Positions 27,590-59,640 of a stretch of 64,000 bases of DNA are shown here, one piece after another. The translations under genes and the position numbers were made by a program. Each line of letters begins with the position of its first letter. Within the stretch, counting starts at the first letter, position 1. Source of the DNA: TPA_inf: Saccharomyces (taxonomy: Eukaryota); NCBI GenBank assembly GCA_000146045.2, contig BK006938.2, forward strand, positions 96,001 through 160,000, written 5' to 3'. The notes under the pieces are model-generated. The model was not told the DNA's origin, made no database searches, and was given only the letters and a program-made list of their open reading frames with translations.

Positions 27590-27864
27590 CGTGAGGAGTG
27601 AACTATACATAGCGAAAAAATTACGTAACGGTTTATAGAAATTCTAGTATGAGAACAGTAATATATGAGAAAAAGTTGTTTTCACTTTGTGTTCGAAAAA
27701 ATAAGTATTTGAAAACGAAAAAATAGTTTGTATGTTTGTATATAAGTTGTTATTATCAAAAATTAGAGGGAAAAAGTAACTAAATATATATTAAAAAAAA
27801 AAAAAAAATAAATGTATGTTGGAATGAAATAGCGTAGTAAGGATAAAGGTGTAATAGATATATA

Positions 27865-30537: not shown

Positions 30538-30575
30538 TTTTTTTTTTTTTTTTTTTTTTTTTTTTCACATCTTTT
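30538..30575. repeat. 38-nt homopolymeric poly(dT:dA) tract
   Basis: An uninterrupted T run between the YDL186W 3' end and the VMA1 promoter. It creates the spurious poly-Lys ORF 30384-30590 on the minus strand. Confidence 0.95.
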
Positions 30576-30786: not shown

Positions 30787-33700
30787 ATGGCTGGTGCAAT
30801 TGAAAACGCTCGTAAGGAAATAAAAAGAATCTCATTAGAAGACCATGCTGAATCTGAATATGGTGCCATCTATTCTGTCTCTGGTCCGGTCGTCATTGCT
30901 GAAAATATGATTGGTTGTGCCATGTACGAATTGGTCAAGGTCGGTCACGATAACCTGGTGGGTGAAGTCATTAGAATTGACGGTGACAAGGCCACCATCC
31001 AAGTTTACGAAGAAACTGCAGGCCTTACGGTCGGTGACCCTGTTTTGAGAACAGGTAAGCCTCTGTCGGTAGAATTGGGTCCTGGTCTGATGGAAACCAT
31101 TTACGATGGTATTCAAAGACCTTTGAAAGCCATTAAGGAAGAATCGCAATCGATTTATATCCCAAGAGGTATTGACACTCCAGCTTTGGATAGGACTATC
31201 AAGTGGCAATTTACTCCGGGAAAGTTTCAAGTCGGCGATCATATTTCCGGTGGTGATATTTACGGTTCCGTTTTTGAGAATTCGCTAATTTCAAGCCATA
31301 AGATTCTTTTGCCACCAAGATCAAGAGGTACAATCACTTGGATTGCTCCAGCTGGTGAGTACACTTTGGATGAGAAGATTTTGGAAGTTGAATTTGATGG
31401 CAAGAAGTCTGATTTCACTCTTTACCATACTTGGCCTGTTCGTGTTCCAAGACCAGTTACTGAAAAGTTATCTGCTGACTATCCTTTGTTAACAGGTCAA
31501 AGAGTTTTGGATGCTTTGTTTCCTTGTGTTCAAGGTGGTACGACATGTATTCCAGGTGCTTTTGGTTGTGGTAAGACCGTTATCTCTCAATCTTTGTCCA
31601 AGTACTCCAATTCTGACGCCATTATCTATGTCGGGTGCTTTGCCAAGGGTACCAATGTTTTAATGGCGGATGGGTCTATTGAATGTATTGAAAACATTGA
31701 GGTTGGTAATAAGGTCATGGGTAAAGATGGCAGACCTCGTGAGGTAATTAAATTGCCCAGAGGAAGAGAAACTATGTACAGCGTCGTGCAGAAAAGTCAG
31801 CACAGAGCCCACAAAAGTGACTCAAGTCGTGAAGTGCCAGAATTACTCAAGTTTACGTGTAATGCGACCCATGAGTTGGTTGTTAGAACACCTCGTAGTG
31901 TCCGCCGTTTGTCTCGTACCATTAAGGGTGTCGAATATTTTGAAGTTATTACTTTTGAGATGGGCCAAAAGAAAGCCCCCGACGGTAGAATTGTTGAGCT
32001 TGTCAAGGAAGTTTCAAAGAGCTACCCAATATCTGAGGGGCCTGAGAGAGCCAACGAATTAGTAGAATCCTATAGAAAGGCTTCAAATAAAGCTTATTTT
32101 GAGTGGACTATTGAGGCCAGAGATCTTTCTCTGTTGGGTTCCCATGTTCGTAAAGCTACCTACCAGACTTACGCTCCAATTCTTTATGAGAATGACCACT
32201 TTTTCGACTACATGCAAAAAAGTAAGTTTCATCTCACCATTGAAGGTCCAAAAGTACTTGCTTATTTACTTGGTTTATGGATTGGTGATGGATTGTCTGA
32301 CAGGGCAACTTTTTCGGTTGATTCCAGAGATACTTCTTTGATGGAACGTGTTACTGAATATGCTGAAAAGTTGAATTTGTGCGCCGAGTATAAGGACAGA
32401 AAAGAACCACAAGTTGCCAAAACTGTTAATTTGTACTCTAAAGTTGTCAGAGGTAATGGTATTCGCAATAATCTTAATACTGAGAATCCATTATGGGACG
32501 CTATTGTTGGCTTAGGATTCTTGAAGGACGGTGTCAAAAATATTCCTTCTTTCTTGTCTACGGACAATATCGGTACTCGTGAAACATTTCTTGCTGGTCT
32601 AATTGATTCTGATGGCTATGTTACTGATGAGCATGGTATTAAAGCAACAATAAAGACAATTCATACTTCTGTCAGAGATGGTTTGGTTTCCCTTGCTCGT
32701 TCTTTAGGCTTAGTAGTCTCGGTTAACGCAGAACCTGCTAAGGTTGACATGAATGGCACCAAACATAAAATTAGTTATGCTATTTATATGTCTGGTGGAG
32801 ATGTTTTGCTTAACGTTCTTTCGAAGTGTGCCGGCTCTAAAAAATTCAGGCCTGCTCCCGCCGCTGCTTTTGCACGTGAGTGCCGCGGATTTTATTTCGA
32901 GTTACAAGAATTGAAGGAAGACGATTATTATGGGATTACTTTATCTGATGATTCTGATCATCAGTTTTTGCTTGCCAACCAGGTTGTCGTCCATAATTGC
33001 GGAGAAAGAGGTAATGAAATGGCAGAAGTCTTGATGGAATTCCCAGAGTTATATACTGAAATGAGCGGTACTAAAGAACCAATTATGAAGCGTACTACTT
33101 TGGTCGCTAATACATCTAACATGCCGGTTGCAGCCAGAGAAGCTTCTATTTACACTGGTATCACTCTTGCAGAATACTTCAGAGATCAAGGTAAAAATGT
33201 TTCTATGATTGCAGACTCTTCTTCAAGATGGGCTGAAGCTTTGAGAGAAATTTCTGGTCGTTTGGGTGAGATGCCTGCTGATCAAGGTTTCCCAGCTTAT
33301 TTGGGTGCTAAGTTGGCCTCCTTTTACGAAAGAGCCGGTAAAGCTGTTGCTTTAGGTTCCCCAGATCGTACTGGTTCCGTTTCCATCGTTGCTGCCGTTT
33401 CGCCAGCCGGTGGTGATTTCTCAGATCCTGTTACTACTGCTACATTGGGTATCACTCAAGTCTTTTGGGGTTTAGACAAGAAATTGGCTCAAAGAAAGCA
33501 TTTCCCATCTATCAACACATCTGTTTCTTACTCCAAATACACTAATGTCTTGAACAAGTTTTATGATTCCAATTACCCTGAATTTCCTGTTTTAAGAGAT
33601 CGTATGAAGGAAATTCTATCAAACGCTGAAGAATTAGAACAAGTTGTTCAATTAGTTGGTAAATCGGCCTTGTCTGATAGTGATAAGATTACTTTGGATG

Positions 33701-34002
33701 TTGCCACTTTAATCAAGGAAGATTTCTTGCAACAAAATGGTTACTCCACTTATGATGCTTTCTGTCCAATTTGGAAGACATTTGATATGATGAGAGCCTT
33801 CATCTCGTATCATGACGAAGCTCAAAAAGCTGTTGCTAATGGTGCCAACTGGTCAAAACTAGCTGACTCTACTGGTGACGTTAAGCATGCCGTTTCTTCA
33901 TCTAAATTTTTTGAACCAAGCAGGGGTGAAAAGGAAGTCCATGGCGAATTCGAAAAATTGTTGAGCACTATGCAAGAAAGATTTGCTGAATCTACCGATT
34001 AA
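30787..34002 (+). CDS. VMA1: Vacuolar H+-ATPase catalytic subunit A precursor containing the VDE intein, YDL185W
   Basis: 1071-aa precursor. The N-extein carries a Walker A motif (GAFGCGKT). The intein runs Cys284..Asn737 and the C-extein resumes [11 protein letters not shown]... Spliced Vma1 would be 617 aa. Confidence 0.97.
31636..32997 (+). mobile_element. VDE: VDE / PI-SceI intein (454 aa) encoding a LAGLIDADG homing endonuclease
   Basis: In-frame insertion bounded by G|[13 protein letters not shown] at its N-terminus and VVVHN|CGER at its C-terminus. The Cys1 codon TGC is at 31636-31638, the terminal Asn codon AAT at 32995-32997 and the +1 Cys at 32998-33000. Two LAGLIDADG motifs are present: LLGLWIGDG and [12 protein letters not shown]. 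Confidence 0.95.
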
Positions 34003-39895: not shown

Positions 39896-41539
39896 ATGGT
39901 CCGATTAAATCATGCAGCATCATATTTTATGCCTATTTTCTGCTCCACAAGGCCTCACATAGTGATACTTTCTGCGCTGTTTAGTATTTCACTGTTTTCA
40001 CTATTCTATGCGTCGTCCGAATTACTGCTACACCAGTATGATGATCCATTGATGTTCAAACCAAATTCGCAGGACTATTTCAGGACCTTTCTTTTGGGGC
40101 TTTTTTCACCATTTCTTTATTATTTCCTGAAGACCTTTCTATTCAATATAAATCAAAGGTTTTTAATATTGAACCTGATAGTGGATTTTCCTATCAACGA
40201 CGTCTTTATGCTTTTGATACTGATTGGTTTAGCGTACCCTCAGGTGCAAGATCACGAAGGCGGTACGATCAAGCATAAGGAATGTTCTTGGCACATCATT
40301 CCAAGACAAGCCTATATCTTTGGTATATCATGGGCCCTGGGTGAATTCACCATATGCATAATAGGGAATTTGTTTAACTACCAAGAAATCGCCGATCCAA
40401 ACATTAATAGTGGCTTCACACACCAGGAAAGCGCCAACACTTACTGTAACAATAATGATATGAGCCATAACGATGACTGCGGTTGTAGTACAGAATATCG
40501 CCCCAACGTCGTAGACAGAAGTGATATTACGTTGTCCAAATGTATTGAAGTAAGAAATGACTCATCTTCCATATCGAATAACGTATACTCGTCTGAGTAC
40601 CATCCAATCAAACCTCTACGTTCATCGTCATCAACTTATGGCAGCATACGACAGCAACCTCATGAAAATAAGAAGCAGCTGCATGTACCAGATAATTCGC
40701 AGGACGATACAATTATCATGATGAACCCCATCGACAATTCATTAAAGTTGACAACTCTAGATACGGGTGATTTGAGTTTCCCCATAGACGAAGAACAGCC
40801 CATTTTGAAGAAATCTTTTGGTTATACATGGGCAGTTCCTAATGAAAATACACAAAATACTACTAAAAGCTTCACACCGATAAAGAGATTTATTGCATTT
40901 AGCACGGCATACCAGTTGGTCACCGGTTTATTGTTAATGATATTGGTAGTTGGTAGTAATATCATGTTGACAATTGGGGAATCATTGATTCTGTCGATGT
41001 ATTTCGTCTATGTTCGCGGCCATGAAGGATTATTTACTCCCGTGGTGAACTACTTCGGCTCAAGAACCATTTCAAATTTCATCTTATGCGTAATAATTCC
41101 TTTCATATCTCTAAACTTCCTCATCAACACTTCGATATATTTAAGAAGAGAGCTAGACGATTGGTTTAATAATTCACAGGGGGAGTTTGAGGACGACGAC
41201 GAAAATACTATCAGTAAGAGAGTAGCTACAAATCAAGAGTACCAACATCCACTGAGTGCTAATTACATTTCGATGGATAGTCCTGATGTAATAAATAGCA
41301 GCCCGGGTCACTTCGGGATGAATTCAGGCCAGTTGTTAGGTAATACGACGTTATATTATGGTAGTTTAAATGGGGATGATGATGATATGACCAACGACTC
41401 CGCTTTACTAAGATTCTGCAAGAAGCTAGTCAAAAATTGGAGGGCTTTGGCAAGAAATGATTCTTTTGTACTTGGAGTAATGGTTTCTTGGAGTCTTCTT
41501 GTTTTTGTAACGGGAATACTTTCAACAGTTTATATATAG
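39896..41539 (+). CDS. Uncharacterised multi-pass membrane protein, YDL180W
   Basis: 547 aa, ATG at 39896. Hydrophobic segments at both ends with a hydrophilic middle. No domain recognised. Position matches YDL180W. Confidence 0.7.
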   Translation: MVRLNHAASYFMPIFCSTRPHIVILSALFSISLFSLFYASSELLLHQYDDPLMFKPNSQDYFRTFLLGLFSPFLYYFLKTFLFNINQRFLILNLIVDFPINDVFMLLILIGLAYPQVQDHEGGTIKHKECSWHIIPRQAYIFGISWALGEFTICIIGNLFNYQEIADPNINSGFTHQESANTYCNNNDMSHNDDCGCSTEYRPNVVDRSDITLSKCIEVRNDSSSISNNVYSSEYHPIKPLRSSSSTYGSIRQQPHENKKQLHVPDNSQDDTIIMMNPIDNSLKLTTLDTGDLSFPIDEEQPILKKSFGYTWAVPNENTQNTTKSFTPIKRFIAFSTAYQLVTGLLLMILVVGSNIMLTIGESLILSMYFVYVRGHEGLFTPVVNYFGSRTISNFILCVIIPFISLNFLINTSIYLRRELDDWFNNSQGEFEDDDENTISKRVATNQEYQHPLSANYISMDSPDVINSSPGHFGMNSGQLLGNTTLYYGSLNGDDDDMTNDSALLRFCKKLVKNWRALARNDSFVLGVMVSWSLLVFVTGILSTVYI

Positions 41540-41792
41540 CATATAAGTAACGACCGTGCACATATTAGGGTGTTCATATCTTGAAAAATCTTTATGTTAT
41601 CCATTTTACTTTAGGGGAGGTGGAGCTTAATAATAAAATTTACATAAGAACAACAATCTGTAAGTAATTATAAAAATATATTAAAGGGACATTTTAACCC
41701 TACTTTAAAAGTTTAACTACATCAGTGGTTCATCAATCAAAGGTTATGCAAGGTAGAAATTTGTCCAAAAGAAAATAGATCATGCATCATTC

Positions 41793-41930
41793 AATATGGA
41801 GCTCACACTGTATGCTACAATTTGGCCTCCATTCATAACTGCCAAGATAAAATTTGTTGGCAATATGGAGCTCACACTGTATGCTACAATTTGGCCTCCA
41901 TTCATAACTGCCAAGATAAAATTTGTTGGC
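41793..41930. repeat. Perfect 2 x 69-bp direct tandem duplication in an intergenic spacer
   Basis: The unit AATATGGAGCTCACACTGTATGCTACAATTTGGCCTCCATTCATAACTGCCAAGATAAAATTTGTTGGC occupies 41793-41861 and repeats identically at 41862-41930, followed by 5 nt of a third copy. Confidence 0.9.
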
Positions 41931-42290: not shown

Positions 42291-43205
42291 ATGATTTCTG
42301 ACTACGATGCTCTTTTGCAATTCAACAAAAAACCTGTTTCGCAAGAAATGATTCAGTTCTTAGCCACTTCTACTGCTTCCATAATTAAAATCAGGGAAAA
42401 TAATAATCCAATCCAAGGATGTCGCCCACCAGACTTATCTATCTTCATTAAAAACGTGGTAATTCAGTCAAATGTTCAAACACCAACTTTAATGGCCACA
42501 TCAGTTTATTTAAACAAACTGAAAAGCGTAATACCAAAAAATGTGTACGGTATTAACACCACAAGACATCGGATATTTCTCGGATGCTTGATATTAGCTG
42601 CCAAAACTCTGAACGATTCTTCTCCCTGGAACAAACACTGGACCACGTACACAGAAGGTTTACTCAGAATACGTGAGGTGAATACCATCGAACGAGAACT
42701 ATTAGAATATTTAAATTGGGATGTGAGGATAACTACACCGGATTTGATTGATTCTCTTTCTTACTTCCTCGGGCCTATCAAGGAACAACTATTTTTACAA
42801 AGGAGACAAGAAATGCTGTTGTTCAATGCACCAAGTCCCGGCCAACTGAAAGAATATATAAATCATAGAAGACCGGTTTCGCATTCTAGAACTTCTTCTG
42901 CTATATCGGTTCCTTCACTGACATCCATGGCAACAGTTTCGACAACAGACTCAAGGTCTTCTCTACTGGCAAAATACCAACCGTCCCTACCGTTGGTGGA
43001 ATCTGACAACTTCAACAAAAAAAATCATGTGCCGTTAAGGAATAATAACGATATCTGTAATAATTTCAGGGCAGAGGAAAACATACACTCAGTAAACCAT
43101 ATTGATGTAACAATGGGAAGTTCACCAGTAATGTCGCATAAGCCCACAATTCACCAACGGTTAAATTTTACAAGGAGGGGCTGGTCATCGTTTTTCAAGC
43201 AATAA
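42291..43205 (+). CDS. PCL9: Pho85-family cyclin, YDL179W
   Basis: 304 aa, ATG at 42291. Cyclin-box region (…RIFLGCLILAAKTLNDSSPWNKHW…). Position matches. Confidence 0.85.
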   Translation: MISDYDALLQFNKKPVSQEMIQFLATSTASIIKIRENNNPIQGCRPPDLSIFIKNVVIQSNVQTPTLMATSVYLNKLKSVIPKNVYGINTTRHRIFLGCLILAAKTLNDSSPWNKHWTTYTEGLLRIREVNTIERELLEYLNWDVRITTPDLIDSLSYFLGPIKEQLFLQRRQEMLLFNAPSPGQLKEYINHRRPVSHSRTSSAISVPSLTSMATVSTTDSRSSLLAKYQPSLPLVESDNFNKKNHVPLRNNNDICNNFRAEENIHSVNHIDVTMGSSPVMSHKPTIHQRLNFTRRGWSSFFKQ

Positions 43206-53100: not shown

Positions 53101-53116
53101 AATAAACTAAATAAAA

Positions 53117-53168
<52 letters not shown>
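53101..53168. repeat. (AAAT)n microsatellite, about 14 units
   Basis: aataaactaaataaaataaataaataaataaataaataaataaataaataaataaataaataaataa, lying between the convergent 3' ends of PAR32 and GLT1. Confidence 0.95.
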
Positions 53169-53202
53169 ATACGATCATAAAATAAATAATAACTCAAGCT
53201 TT

Positions 53203-56200
53203 TTAGACTTGACTAGCTAATTCTTTCAATAGTTTGTAATCACGTTGAACGATACCACCATTACTTGGTAGATACGTAGTGCCGTCCATTAGGAACTTAT
53301 CGACAGAGGCAGCACATTTTCTACCTTCTTGGATGGCCCAGACAATCAAAGATTGCCCTCTTCTACAGTCACCACATGCAAAAGTCTTTCCTCCATCAAT
53401 AGAGTATGAGGAGTCGTCGAGTGTGGCAATCGTACCACGTCTTGTCTTCTTAACTTCGTTATCGTTGCCATTGATCAATTCAGGACCCACGAAACCCATA
53501 GACAACAAAATGATATCGGCTTCAAAGATCTCTTCACTGTTGGGAATTTCTACCATTTGCCATACGCCACTTTGTGACTTCTTCCATTCTACGCGCACAG
53601 TTCTGATGGCAGTGACTTCACCCTCATCGTTACCGATAAATTCCTTGGACAAGATGCAGTATTCACGAGGGTCTCTACCATAATGCTCTTTCACTTCAGC
53701 ATGACCGTAGTCCACTCTCATGACACGCGGCCATTGAGGCCATGGATTGTCTTTGGCACGTTCCACTGGTGGCTCAGGCAACAATTCGAAATTCAAAACT
53801 GATGCTGCACCGTGTCTTACAGATGTACCTAAACAATCGTTACCTGTGTCACCACCACCGACAACAATTACTTTCTTACCTTGGATCTTTTCACGAATGA
53901 TTTCCAGATCTTTGTTCAATAAAGCTTTTGTGTTAGATTCCAACAACTGCATGGCAAAATCAATATTCTTCAATTCACGACCCTTAATAGGTAAGTCACG
54001 TGGAATGGTAGAACCGATAGCATACACTACTGCATTGTGCTTGTTCTTTAGCTCATCCATGCTTATGGTTTTACCAATTTCGGTGTTGGTAACAAAGTCA
54101 ATACCTTCGGCACTCAATAGATCAATACGACGTTGCACTATAGCCTTATCCAACTTCATGTTTGGAATACCATACATCAATAACCCACCACAACGGTCGG
54201 ATCTTTCATAAACAGTGACCGTATGTCCGGCACGGTTCAACATATCAGCACACGCTAAACCTGCTGGACCAGAACCAATGACACCCACTGTAAAGCCAGT
54301 GCGTGTACTTGGTGGACAAGGCTTAATCCATCCTTCCTTGAAAGCATTGTCAATGATAATTCTTTCAACCGATTTTATGCCGACTGGGTCTTCAATAATA
54401 CCTAGTGTACAAGCTCCCTCACAGGGTGCTGGACATACTCTTCCAGTGAATTCTGGGAAATTGTTTGTCTCTAGCAATTTGTCCAGTGCCAACTTCCATT
54501 GGTTCTTGAATAACAATTCATTAAACTTGGGGATAATGTTAGATAGGGGACAACCGGTATCAGATAAACAGAATGGTGTACCACAATCCATACATCTCGC
54601 AGTTTGATATTTGGCATCCTTCTTGGTAATAGGGTTAGTAAATTCTTTCCAGTCATTAACTCTGGTTCTTGGATCTCTGTGTGTCTCATGACGACGTTTG
54701 TGGATCATAAAACCACGTGTTTTTTCAATCCTTTCGCTATTCTTCTCTAGCTGTTTGGAATCTGGAACTGCATCTTCTAAATCAACAACCTTAGGCTCCT
54801 TCAAAGTGGCCTTATTTGAAATAGTAATACTCTTCTTTTTTTCTTGCTCTTTAGCTTTTTGATTAGCAATCAATAGAGTATTGACTTCGTCATCAACTTC
54901 TTGGTTCGATCTAAACTTCTTTAAGTATTCTGAAGTTGCCTTAGCCTTTGCCTTGGCAGCTTCTGCTTTCTCCTTCAACAAAACTTTCTTATAATCAGTT
55001 GGAATGACTTTAACGAAATCTTTCAAATAATGGTTGAAATTACCGAGAATCCTGGCTGCTAGATCAGATTGTGTGTAGTTCCAATGCTCCTGGATCAAAT
55101 TCTTAACAAACGCAATCTCGACCGGGTCACATAATGATTCTAACTCAACAGTATCTTTGTTAATCTTTCCAACAAAATCGTCGTAATCGGAAGTTAAACA
55201 GTATGCAATACCACCAGTAGCACCAGAGAAGGCGTTTAGGGATTCCATTTGTGATAAGACAATGGCACGACCACCAGTCATATACTCAAAGGCATTGTTA
55301 CCCTTAATTCTCTCAACAACGATGGTGGCACCAGAGTTTCTGACACCGAAACGCTCACCGGCACTACCTGAAATGAATGCAGTACCAGAAGTAGCACCAT
55401 AGAAACAAGTGTTACCAACAATTACATTTTCATCACTCTTGAATTTAGAATCCTTTGGTGGTTTAATGACAATAATACCACCGGATAAACCTTTACCAAC
55501 ATAATCATTAGCATCACCATTCAAGATAAAAGTGATACCAGAAGCTAGGAAAGCACCAAAAGATTGACCCGCTGAACCTTCTATGTTAACGACAACGGTG
55601 TCCTTTGGCAAACCATCTTCACCAAATTTCTTCGAGACTCTGTAAGATAAAGTAGAACCGAGTGCACGATCAGTATTGATTATAGAGGCGTCAATATTCA
55701 CTGGTAAGCCACGATCCAAAGTAACTTCAGCCTCATCGATTAACTTATTATCTAGACGGGTGTGGAGTTTGTGGTCTTGTTTCTTAGTGAACTTGGTTGG
55801 AACACCTGGACGAATAACATGTGCTGGGGTCAAAATAGGAGATAAATCGATATTTATGGCTTTGGCATTTACGTCGTCCCTTTTCTTTAATTTTTCAGAA
55901 TGACCCACCATTTCGTCAATGGTACGGAATCCTAACTTGGCCATGATTTGTCTTAAATCTTGGATCAAGTAATAGAAGAAGTTGATAACATGTTCGGGCT
56001 GACCCTTAAACTTACTTCTCAAATATGGATCTTGTGTGGCAATACCAACAGCACAAGAGTTCAAGTGACATCTTCTTAACATAACACAACCCATAGCAAT
56101 TAATGGAACTGTTGCCAAGGTAAAAGATTCTGCCCCTAATAAAACTGCAACAGCAATATCAAACCCAGTTCTCAATTGACCATCGGTTTGGACAACAACA

Positions 56201-59200
56201 TTACGTCTTAAATCATTCAAGACTAAAGTCTGGTGAGTTTCAGCTAGACCTAATTCCCATGGCAAACCCGCATATTTGACACTCGTCCATCTTGCAGCAC
56301 CTGTACCACCATCATGACCAGAAACTAAGATATGATCGGCTTTAGCCTTAGCTACACCAGAGGCAACAATACCAACACCAACTTCGGAAACCAACTTTAC
56401 AGAAATTCCCGCTCTTGGATTAGCACATTTCAAATCATAAATCAGTTGTTTCAAATCTTCAATGGAATAAATATCGTGATGAGGAGGAGGAGAGATTAAC
56501 CCAACATTAGGGGTGGAGTGCCTGGTTTTTGCGATATCCTTAGACACTTTGTGGGCTGGTAGTTCACCACCTTCACCCGGCTTAGCACCCTGAGCAATCT
56601 TAATTTGGATTTCATCAGCATCTGACAAGTAGTATGAAGTTACACCGAATCTAGCGGAAGCAACTTGTTTGATAGCAGATCTCATAGTATCACCGTTTTC
56701 TTGAACAGCAGAACGTTCTGCGTCTTCACCACCTTCACCACAATTGGATTTGGCCCCTAAACGATTCATGGCAATAGCCAATGTAGAGTGAGCTTCCATA
56801 GAAATAGAACCATAAGACATTGCACCTGACGCAAATCTTCTGGCAATTTCAGTCCATGGTTCAACTTGTTCTAGAGGGATACTGACAGAATTTTCAAAAT
56901 CTAATTCTAACAGTCCTCTTAGTGTACAGTCTCTAATTGCTTCCATTTCCTTCTTTACATATAATTGCCAAGAGACATCATTTTTGTTTCTGACAGTATC
57001 TTGTAACGAAGCAATTGCGGTTGGTTCGTTGACGTGTTTGTAACCACCATCCCTAAAGTGGTATTCACCACTTTCTGGTAAGTTAACAGATTTACTAATG
57101 GTTTGTCTGGATGGATAACCACGCTCATGTAAAGAAAAGGCATCTTGAGCCAAATACTCGAAAGTTACACCTCTAATTCTGGAAGAAGTACCTGTGAAAC
57201 ACAAATCAACAATAGAGTTATCTAAACCTAGGGCTTCAAAAATTTGAGCACCTTTGTAGGATGCTAGAGTGGAGATACCCATTTTAGACATAACCTTCAA
57301 GATACCTGCATCAATAGCGTGCTTGTAATTTTCTAGTATTTGCCCTTCCTCAAGTGTATCATTGTCATTGTTGACATTACGAAGTAGACCTTCTCTATTC
57401 ATTCTGACCAAAGTTTCCATGGCTAAGTATGGATAAACACCATCACAACCATAACCTAGTAGGACACAGAAATGGTGAATTTCTCTGGCTTCACCTGTTT
57501 CCAAAATCAAAGCAACTTGGGAACGCTGCTTGTTTCTGATTAGGTGATGATGAATACATGAAATTGCAATCAAAGAGGAGATGGAAACACGGTTGGCACC
57601 CATTTTCCTGTCAGTAATTATTAAGATCTTTTTACCATCATCAATTGCTTCGCTCGCTAACTTAGTGATTTTATCAATTGTGTCGGTATAGCCCAATAGA
57701 CCCTCACTCTTGTCGAATGTGATATCAATTTCTGCTACAGACCATGATGGGTAAGCAGCTTCAATGTTTTTCAAAGCTTGGAACTCATTCCAATGCAAAA
57801 TAGGAGATTTCAATAATAAACGATCACATTGAGATGAATGCATTTCCAAAAGGTTGCCTTGAGGTCCGACATAACATTCTAACGACATAACATTTGCTTC
57901 ACGAATTGGGTCAATTGGAGGATTGGTCACTTGAGCAAACAATTGTCTGAAATAATCATAAAGTAAGACAGGATTTTCATTTAAACAAGCCAGTGGCGCA
58001 TCGTTACCCATCGAACCTAAAGCTTCTTTACCTGTTAAAGCCATTGGAGTTAACAGAAATGTGACTTGTTCGAAGGTATAACCATTGGCCAATAGACGTG
58101 GGTCACTTTGAACTTTCAAAGACAATGAATCCTGTGATATAAATTCTTTAGGAACCAAATTAGCGGTTTTTGATAACAAGTCGTCTAACTTGATGACTTT
58201 GGATAACCAAGACTTAAAATCTTGTCTTTTTGAGATTTGAGATTTTAACTTTTTAGTATCGACCATTTCACCCAATTGAGTATCCACTAGGAATAAATCA
58301 CCTGGCTTCAGTTTACCTTTTTGAACAACCAATGAATTTTCGATAGGAATGACACCTACCTCTGAAGCACAGATAACTCTGTCATCACTAGTGATGTAAT
58401 AACGACAAGGTCTTAAACCATTTCTATCCAATATAGCACCACAGTAACGTCCATCAGTGAAAGTTAACAAAGCTGGACCATCCCAAGGTTCCATCAGACA
58501 TGCAGCCCAGTCGTACCATGCTTTTAGGTCAGAATCCATATCCTTATGATACGCTTCAGGAACCATCATCATAACAGCTTCAGGTAGAGATAATGTGCCA
58601 TTAATAGTCAATAGTTCTAAAACGTTATCCAATGCAGCTGAATCAGAACCACCTTCTTCGATAATTGGGTATAGTTTGTCTAACTCATCTTTGAAAGTTG
58701 CTGAATTCATCACACCTTCTCTGGAGCGCATCCAATTCTTGTTACCTCTTAAGGTGTTAATTTCACCATTATGAGCTAGCCAACGTAAAGGTTGAGCTCT
58801 ATCCCAAGAGGGGAAAGTATTAGTGGAAAATCTTGAATGGACCAACGCCATGTGGGATTTGAAATGCGCATTAGTCAAGTCGGGATAGTAGTTATACACT
58901 TGAGCTGGCGTCAATTGACCCTTGTAAACAATGGTGGTATTGTTTAGGGAACAAACATAGAACCAGTTTTCCAGTCCTATTTGAAGAGAGGCCTCCTTCC
59001 TTAAAAGATACAATTGAGTTCTAAATTTAGTTTCATTAAACTCCGGTTGTTTTTCATCATACAATGGAACCAATAATGGCTGTAGAATAGTAGGTTCACG
59101 AGATAATGCAACGTCTCCTAAAATAGTAGAATCTACGGGGACGTTTCTCCAACCTAATACGGATAAGTTGAAGGATGCAGCTAAATCCTCGAAAATCTTC

Positions 59201-59640
59201 TGACACTTAATTAAATTTTTCTTGTTATTTTTTTCGTTCTTCTTGAAGAAGACGTTACCTACGGCGTATTTGCCCATCTCAGGTATGTCTAGATCAAGAT
59301 CTAACTTGAATTCTCTTTTCATAAATTCGTGAGGAATACCTAGCAGAATACCGGCACCGTCACCGTTCCCATCAGATGAGACGGCACCACGATGTGTCAT
59401 ATTCACTAAAAGATATCTAGCGTCAGTAACAATCTTGTGAGACTGTTCACCATGCTTATTTGCTACGAAACCGACACCACAAGCGTCATGTTCATAATCA
59501 GGGTCGTAAAGTCCTCGTTTGTCCGGAATCACATTTGCCCAAGATTTATGAAGATGGTGTTCATCGTTATAGTTTTGAATTGTCCCACCTTCGTAAGCTT
59601 CTTCCAATGGATCGAAATTGTCTGATTTCAACACTGGCAT
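53203..59640 (-). CDS. GLT1: NADH-dependent glutamate synthase (GOGAT), YDL171C
   Basis: 2145 aa, ATG complement at 59638-59640. N-terminal class-II glutamine amidotransferase (…HDACGVGFVANK…), a central FMN/Fe-S glutamate-synthase domain and GXXGG-type central domains. The C-terminus is a fused small-subunit-like NAD(P)H-binding domain (GVIGSGPAGLACA). Confidence 0.97.
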   Translation of the reverse strand: MPVLKSDNFDPLEEAYEGGTIQNYNDEHHLHKSWANVIPDKRGLYDPDYEHDACGVGFVANKHGEQSHKIVTDARYLLVNMTHRGAVSSDGNGDGAGILLGIPHEFMKREFKLDLDLDIPEMGKYAVGNVFFKKNEKNNKKNLIKCQKIFEDLAASFNLSVLGWRNVPVDSTILGDVALSREPTILQPLLVPLYDEKQPEFNETKFRTQLYLLRKEASLQIGLENWFYVCSLNNTTIVYKGQLTPAQVYNYYPDLTNAHFKSHMALVHSRFSTNTFPSWDRAQPLRWLAHNGEINTLRGNKNWMRSREGVMNSATFKDELDKLYPIIEEGGSDSAALDNVLELLTINGTLSLPEAVMMMVPEAYHKDMDSDLKAWYDWAACLMEPWDGPALLTFTDGRYCGAILDRNGLRPCRYYITSDDRVICASEVGVIPIENSLVVQKGKLKPGDLFLVDTQLGEMVDTKKLKSQISKRQDFKSWLSKVIKLDDLLSKTANLVPKEFISQDSLSLKVQSDPRLLANGYTFEQVTFLLTPMALTGKEALGSMGNDAPLACLNENPVLLYDYFRQLFAQVTNPPIDPIREANVMSLECYVGPQGNLLEMHSSQCDRLLLKSPILHWNEFQALKNIEAAYPSWSVAEIDITFDKSEGLLGYTDTIDKITKLASEAIDDGKKILIITDRKMGANRVSISSLIAISCIHHHLIRNKQRSQVALILETGEAREIHHFCVLLGYGCDGVYPYLAMETLVRMNREGLLRNVNNDNDTLEEGQILENYKHAIDAGILKVMSKMGISTLASYKGAQIFEALGLDNSIVDLCFTGTSSRIRGVTFEYLAQDAFSLHERGYPSRQTISKSVNLPESGEYHFRDGGYKHVNEPTAIASLQDTVRNKNDVSWQLYVKKEMEAIRDCTLRGLLELDFENSVSIPLEQVEPWTEIARRFASGAMSYGSISMEAHSTLAIAMNRLGAKSNCGEGGEDAERSAVQENGDTMRSAIKQVASARFGVTSYYLSDADEIQIKIAQGAKPGEGGELPAHKVSKDIAKTRHSTPNVGLISPPPHHDIYSIEDLKQLIYDLKCANPRAGISVKLVSEVGVGIVASGVAKAKADHILVSGHDGGTGAARWTSVKYAGLPWELGLAETHQTLVLNDLRRNVVVQTDGQLRTGFDIAVAVLLGAESFTLATVPLIAMGCVMLRRCHLNSCAVGIATQDPYLRSKFKGQPEHVINFFYYLIQDLRQIMAKLGFRTIDEMVGHSEKLKKRDDVNAKAINIDLSPILTPAHVIRPGVPTKFTKKQDHKLHTRLDNKLIDEAEVTLDRGLPVNIDASIINTDRALGSTLSYRVSKKFGEDGLPKDTVVVNIEGSAGQSFGAFLASGITFILNGDANDYVGKGLSGGIIVIKPPKDSKFKSDENVIVGNTCFYGATSGTAFISGSAGERFGVRNSGATIVVERIKGNNAFEYMTGGRAIVLSQMESLNAFSGATGGIAYCLTSDYDDFVGKINKDTVELESLCDPVEIAFVKNLIQEHWNYTQSDLAARILGNFNHYLKDFVKVIPTDYKKVLLKEKAEAAKAKAKATSEYLKKFRSNQEVDDEVNTLLIANQKAKEQEKKKSITISNKATLKEPKVVDLEDAVPDSKQLEKNSERIEKTRGFMIHKRRHETHRDPRTRVNDWKEFTNPITKKDAKYQTARCMDCGTPFCLSDTGCPLSNIIPKFNELLFKNQWKLALDKLLETNNFPEFTGRVCPAPCEGACTLGIIEDPVGIKSVERIIIDNAFKEGWIKPCPPSTRTGFTVGVIGSGPAGLACADMLNRAGHTVTVYERSDRCGGLLMYGIPNMKLDKAIVQRRIDLLSAEGIDFVTNTEIGKTISMDELKNKHNAVVYAIGSTIPRDLPIKGRELKNIDFAMQLLESNTKALLNKDLEIIREKIQGKKVIVVGGGDTGNDCLGTSVRHGAASVLNFELLPEPPVERAKDNPWPQWPRVMRVDYGHAEVKEHYGRDPREYCILSKEFIGNDEGEVTAIRTVRVEWKKSQSGVWQMVEIPNSEEIFEADIILLSMGFVGPELINGNDNEVKKTRRGTIATLDDSSYSIDGGKTFACGDCRRGQSLIVWAIQEGRKCAASVDKFLMDGTTYLPSNGGIVQRDYKLLKELASQV

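Follow-up and report, generated by a model that had tools for sequence, protein, structure and literature searches.

An intein identical in sequence to PI-SceI/VDE interrupts VMA1 in a 64,000-nucleotide stretch of Saccharomyces DNA

The window, that is, the whole stretch of 64,000 nucleotides that was analysed, contains VMA1 (TFP1), a gene encoding the catalytic subunit A of the V-ATPase, whose reading frame runs through an N-extein, an intein and a C-extein (Table 1). The precursor scored 1107.4 bits against the NCBIfam model TIGR01042 (V-ATPase_V1_A; cut-off 779.9), a full-length match of the kind that identifies a V-type ATPase subunit A equivalog, and this match fell into two stretches, one on each side of the intein. 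A 100% match was also found between the precursor and the 1071-aa PDB chain 9cop_A. The Pfam domains ATP-synt_ab_N and ATP-synt_ab_Xtn, together with the beginning of ATP-synt_ab, were detected in the N-extein, and the insertion point lies shortly past the Walker A loop, in a segment that ranks among the most conserved of Vma1. The host gene had been described as essential in a previous interpretation of this DNA (hereafter, the sequence-only reading). However, null mutants of vma1 can survive under some conditions, being sensitive to pH and Ca, and "important, highly conserved" is a more accurate description than "essential". Long poly(A) and poly(T) tracts were observed at positions 27790-27808 and 30539-30566, including a run of approximately 27 T residues that precedes the start codon of VMA1 by about 220 nt; tracts of T are characteristic of promoter regions in yeast.

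Table 1. Coordinates of VMA1, its intein and the two halves of the disrupted homing site, numbered from the first letter of the window.
Feature	Position	Strand	Description
VMA1 (TFP1) precursor ORF, complete	30787..34002	+	1071 codons plus stop; N-extein, intein and C-extein in a single frame
N-extein	30787..31635	+	Vma1 residues 1-283, ends ...AIIYVG; holds the Walker A loop GAFGCGKT
Left half of disrupted PI-SceI site	31624..31635	+	12 nt, ATCTATGTCGGG
Intein PI-SceI/VDE (Sce VMA)	31636..32997	+	454 codons, precursor residues 284-737; Pfam Hom_end_hint, Hom_end, LAGLIDADG_3
Cys1 codon TGC	31636..31638	+	Nucleophile of splicing step 1 (N-S acyl shift); mechanism from PMC4031507
Block B NATHEL	31861..31878	+	Asn76 and His79, activating the N-terminal splice junction
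First LAGLIDADG motif LLGLWIGDG	32266..32292	+	Intein aa 211-219, Asp218
Second LAGLIDADG motif LAGLIDSDG	32590..32616	+	Intein aa 319-327, Asp326
C-terminal splice junction His453-Asn454 / Cys+1	32992..33000	+	CAT AAT then TGC, in-frame translation
Right half of disrupted PI-SceI site	32998..33024	+	27 nt, TGCGGAGAAAGAGGTAATGAAATGGCA
C-extein	32998..34002	+	Precursor residues 738-1071 (mature 284-617); starts CGERGNE

The Pfam content of the neighbouring open reading frames comprises Sec31, an 884-aa sugar-transporter-like protein, Arf, Ufd2, R3H, a PP2A-type phosphatase, Mit_KHE1, homocitrate synthase, a Sel1-repeat protein, an L10-like ribosomal protein, a tRNA-methyltransferase-like protein, an O6-methylguanine methyltransferase, an MFS transporter, a mitochondrial carrier and a cyclin, as well as two FAD-linked oxidases (D-lactate-dehydrogenase-like), an Air2-like zinc-knuckle protein, a 2145-aa glutamate synthase and a fungal transcription factor. 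This set of genes fits a Saccharomyces chromosome arm, and the gene order and lengths presumably correspond to the left arm of S. cerevisiae chromosome IV, from YDL195W to YDL169C, with VMA1 as YDL185W. Between a 547-aa ORF (39896..41539) and the cyclin-like ORF of 304 aa (42291..43205), an exact intergenic tandem duplication of 69 nt was found at positions 41792-41929. Its two copies (41792-41860 and 41861-41929) are 100% identical, and the initial 6 nt of a third copy come directly after them; this perfect identity suggests that the duplication is either very recent or a strain-specific or assembly feature. An (AAAT)n microsatellite occupies positions 53106-53170, just downstream of the glutamate synthase ORF.

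The segment interrupting VMA1 translates into 454 residues in frame with no stop codon, beginning with CFAKGT and ending with VVVHN, immediately before CGERGNE of the C-extein, so that every coordinate and junction residue proposed in the sequence-only reading for this interruption was exact. Comparison with PDB sequences revealed 454/454 identical residues (E = 0, 1025 bits) with crystallised PI-SceI (1dfa, 1vde, 1lws, 1lwt), which bears out residue for residue the name that the element had been given. Near-identical matches were also obtained with the engineered variants 1ef0, 1um2 and 1jva, and 1gpp, the isolated splicing/DNA-recognition domain, matched intein residues 1-182 plus a second stretch. 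Similarly, the whole profile of Pfam PF05203 (Hom_end_hint, positions 1-228 of 228) aligned with intein residues 1-453 with an E-value of 7.4e-91, and within this span Hom_end (PF05204, 4.5e-66, in two stretches) and LAGLIDADG_3 (PF14528, 1.4e-08) were recognised. The identity to PDB entries and the E-values of the two strongest Pfam matches exclude a chance match for the intein. As judged from these profile matches, the architecture is that of a large nested intein, in which a Hint splicing domain is split by an endonuclease domain. When the intein alone was compared with NCBIfam, only the RNA polymerase A'' model matched, far below threshold (17.5 bits; cut-off 783); the seed sequences of that model probably include an intein, and the match was set aside as uninformative.

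All the residues that define a class 1 intein were found in the element. Position 1 is a cysteine, block B provides the polar residue at B:7 and the histidine at B:10 (N76-A-T-H79), and the C-terminal His453-Asn454 pair is followed by a cysteine at +1; the Hint fold is indicated by the match to the whole Hom_end_hint profile and by the identity to solved structures. The junction hallmarks initially noticed, namely Cys at position 1, a C-terminal His-Asn and Cys at +1, are therefore all there. The residue at B:7 is an asparagine, whereas threonine is commoner at this position (nomenclature as in PMC4031507); the same asparagine is present in the crystallised protein, and both Asn76 and His79 are kept in every aligned relative that covers the region. 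The GC content of the intein (0.407) is similar to that of the exteins (0.428 and 0.404), with a flat profile and no signature of foreign origin or recent arrival, as expected of a long-resident element, so that base composition is uninformative here.

The endonuclease motifs could likewise be located. The two LAGLIDADG motifs reported from the raw sequence are both present, each ending in an acidic catalytic residue as in LAGLIDADG endonucleases, and the Pfam matches to LAGLIDADG_3 and Hom_end span intein residues 302-407, around the second motif. In the alignment, Asp218, Asp326, Lys301 and Lys403, which we take to be the catalytic residues of PI-SceI, are all kept. On the opposite strand, an ORF of 101 codons with a TTG start (32262-32567, -) lies entirely within the endonuclease domain and was taken as a chance ORF.

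Removal of the intein restores a contiguous, conserved host protein. In-silico deletion of residues 284-737 generates a product of 617 aa that is 100% identical, in a single 1-617 stretch, to the mature yeast A subunit in PDB entries 5bw9, 6o7v and 3j9t. Without gaps through the junction IIYVG-CGERGNE, the spliced product also aligned with 6wlz_A, a chain of 617 aa that ranked next among the A subunits of the PDB and likewise lacks the insert. When the unspliced precursor was used as the PDB query, the non-yeast V-/A-ATPase A chains aligned as two stretches, with residue 738 placed directly after the part that precedes the insertion. This was the orthologue alignment proposed beforehand as a check, and the 454 residues do drop out exactly between ...AIIYVG and CGERGNE...; neither of the outcomes that would have contradicted an intein was observed, as both LAGLIDADG motifs could be found and the conservation of the ATPase does not extend to residues 284-737.

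The sequences flanking the intein are those of its own target. Once fused, the 12 and 27 nt on either side match base for base a 39-nt PI-SceI site introduced into a cloning vector (oligos HSP478/479/484, PMC2632748), and the resulting empty target contains ATCTATGTCGGGTGCGGAGAAAGAGGTAATGAAATGGCA. A full-text search of the literature with the 20-mer GTCGGGTGCGGAGAAAGAGG from the target gave no match, a shorter 11-mer being the one that retrieved the vector oligos of PMC2632748, and nothing useful on the PI-SceI recognition sequence was obtained from PMC10899782. No intact 39-nt site was found on either strand of the window, where the best residual match, with 10 mismatches, is the right half-site in place; the allele carrying the intein should therefore not be cut by its own enzyme. 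As in other homing endonucleases, the target is long and asymmetric, extends over the insertion point and is lost once the element is inserted. Judging from this comparison, the element sits exactly within its own recognition sequence and splits it, the arrangement by which homing elements are defined.

The search for other mobile elements gave negative results. No tRNA genes and no Rfam matches were detected in the window, and Pfam revealed no reverse-transcriptase, integrase, transposase or Hint domains in the other ORFs of at least 150 aa. No terminus of a Ty1 delta LTR was found in the window with a single 23-nt probe. Thus, as far as the tRNA, Rfam, single-probe Ty1 delta and Pfam searches reach, no mobile system other than the intein is apparent in the window, as had been proposed. 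In some fungi, inteins are also hosted by a small number of further nuclear genes, among them that of glutamate synthase (PMC5784728). The glutamate synthase ORF of the window (53203-59640, -, 2145 aa) was found to contain neither a Hint nor an intein domain, and the window therefore includes two known intein hosts, one of them occupied and the other empty.

A large protein collection yielded only 17 relatives of the intein, the identical sequence not being among them. The nearest, P0001 (584 aa, from a Logan assembly), shows 85% identity, carries a chitin-binding domain (PF02839) between the LAGLIDADG motifs, has His453 replaced by Gln and Met at +1, and is surrounded by non-native flanks; it is an artificial construct, probably an intein purification-tag vector sequenced in some run. 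The natural VMA1 relatives share 33-43% identity with the intein and are all located at the VMA1 insertion point (...YVG/CFA...VHN/CGERGNE), and more distant relatives are found in DnaB-type helicases. Four of the VMA1 copies come from Kickxellomycotina (P0004 from Coemansia furcata, P0005 from Linderina macrospora, P0006 from Coemansia helicoidea and P0008 from Coemansia sp. RSA 1824), and their NCBI names are just "V1 sector ATPase subunit A, partial". The residue aligned with Asp218 is replaced in all four (by N in two, by A in one and by C in one), and Asp326 is also replaced in two of them, while the splice-junction residues are kept. From these substitutions, the Kickxellomycotina inteins are probably splicing-competent and endonuclease-dead. 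Kickxellomycotina are not among the clades with VMA1 inteins in Table 1 of the 2018 survey of eukaryotic inteins (PMC5784728), and a full-text literature search combining intein and Coemansia returned just one unrelated paper, on the plant MutS gene family; these inteins may already be documented in databases or in the literature. A tentative suggestion, which we consider rather doubtful, is that they represent a wider known host range for the VMA1-a inteins together with further decay after fixation, or ancient vertical inheritance in early-diverging fungi.

The degeneration apparent in these relatives bears on how the intein of the window itself should be read. An element that still splices but whose endonuclease is dead and whose homing has been lost would correspond to a late stage of the homing cycle, and such decay is presented as the expected fate after fixation in PMC1654191; it appears to have taken place in Kickxellomycotina, where the Asp218-aligned residue is N, C or A. 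In the window, however, Asp218, Asp326, Lys301 and Lys403 are retained and the identity to PI-SceI in the PDB is complete, including 1lws and 1lwt, so that decay of this copy is very improbable.

Even less credible are the two readings in which the segment would not be an intein at all. Its removal as RNA, by the spliceosome or as a self-splicing intron, has no specific support beyond the generic expectation for a eukaryotic intervening sequence, whereas the 1362-nt segment is an unbroken in-frame ORF, its boundaries (GGG/TGCTTT and CATAAT/TGCGGA) do not follow the GT...AG pattern, neither GTATGT nor TACTAAC occurs within it and no Rfam intron matches it. Furthermore, the whole 1071-aa precursor has been deposited as 9cop_A and the segment is reported in the mRNA (PMC5784728), making an RNA intron extremely unlikely. 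The least probable explanation, with a chance close to nil, regards the segment not as a parasite but as a functional domain peculiar to the A subunit of this lineage. Its location in a conserved region beside the P-loop domain and the occurrence of relatives at the identical site in several fungi could be viewed in that light, but other V-/A-ATPase A chains in the PDB lack the segment and align straight over the junction, the mature yeast V-ATPase structures hold a 617-aa protein without it, and the segment itself has the Hint plus LAGLIDADG endonuclease fold.

The best explanation, to which we give a probability of roughly 98%, is that the element is the S. cerevisiae VMA1 intein (PI-SceI/VDE/Sce VMA), a class 1 intein with a nested LAGLIDADG homing endonuclease. 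Nothing was found that speaks against its identity with PI-SceI/VDE, and the assessment of the element as well described rather than novel was correct, this being the founding textbook intein of S. cerevisiae.

Transcription and translation of VMA1 would give a single precursor of 1071 aa, from which the Hint domain would excise itself through an N-S acyl shift at Cys1, transesterification to Cys+1, cyclisation of Asn454 with the help of His453 and a final S-N shift, releasing a mature A subunit of 617 aa and a free endonuclease of 454 aa. The four steps (N-S acyl shift, transesterification, Asn cyclisation and S-N shift) are those described in PMC4031507, and self-excision at this locus is proposed on the basis of the literature (PMC4031507, PMC5784728) and of the V-ATPase structures in the PDB, which contain the mature chain of 617 aa.

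Where one of the two VMA1 alleles of a diploid lacks the intein, the enzyme would recognise some 30-40 bp over the empty insertion point and introduce a staggered double-strand break there during meiosis. Repair from the homologue carrying the intein would then copy the element into the empty allele, resulting in super-Mendelian inheritance, and the occupied allele would be immune because its target is split by the insertion. VDE has been described as leaving a staggered break with 4-nt 3' overhangs and as homing in the meiosis of heterozygous diploids (PMC7282813), and site-specific cleavage and gene conversion in vivo are attributed to Gimble and Thorner 1992, as cited in the same article. 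Splicing, cleavage and meiotic homing are thus ascribed to this intein from the literature, the copy in the window being identical to the experimentally active protein. Published observations on this sequence include the formation of a 69-kDa Vma1 and a 50-kDa VDE from a single ORF, cutting of the 39-nt site in vitro and inheritance of approximately 4:0 in tetrads of VDE+/VDE- diploids.

The importance of PI-SceI/VDE is historical and practical. It was the first intein discovered, revealing that through protein splicing a single gene can give rise to two stable proteins, and it serves as a model of selfish, super-Mendelian inheritance in the eukaryotic nucleus. Both the meganuclease sold as PI-SceI and the self-cleaving purification tags based on inteins are derived from it. 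The present analysis indicates, in addition, that the intein and its exact boundaries are recognisable from raw sequence alone.

Among known systems, the closest is PI-SceI/VDE itself (1vde, 1dfa, 1lws, 1lwt, 1ef0, 1jva, 1um2, 1gpp), which is the same molecule and agrees with the element in host gene, in insertion point (after Gly283 and before the Cys of CGERGNE) and in reconstituted DNA target, and no differences were detected. The other fungal VMA1-a inteins (P0002 and P0007 from JGI fungal material, and P0004-P0006 and P0008 from Coemansia/Linderina) have the Hint plus Hom_end architecture in common with it, although P0002 and P0007 contain an extra 40-60 aa, approximately, between the two LAGLIDADG motifs in comparison with the intein of the window. 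HO and WHO, described as the closest relatives of VDE, are also LAGLIDADG endonucleases in an intein-like scaffold that generate 4-nt 3' overhangs (PMC7282813). Compared by description, they lack exteins and intein motif G and bear a C-terminal zinc finger, whereas the intein of the window has exteins and motif G (HN/C) and no zinc finger. Finally, the fungal Prp8 inteins (PDB 6mx6, 6owu, 6mwy) gave a weak match (E ~3e-5) over the first 50 residues, which form the N-terminal block of the Hint domain. They are likewise nuclear, fungal and inserted in an important conserved gene, but their host gene differs and the detectable likeness is confined to the N-terminal splicing block.
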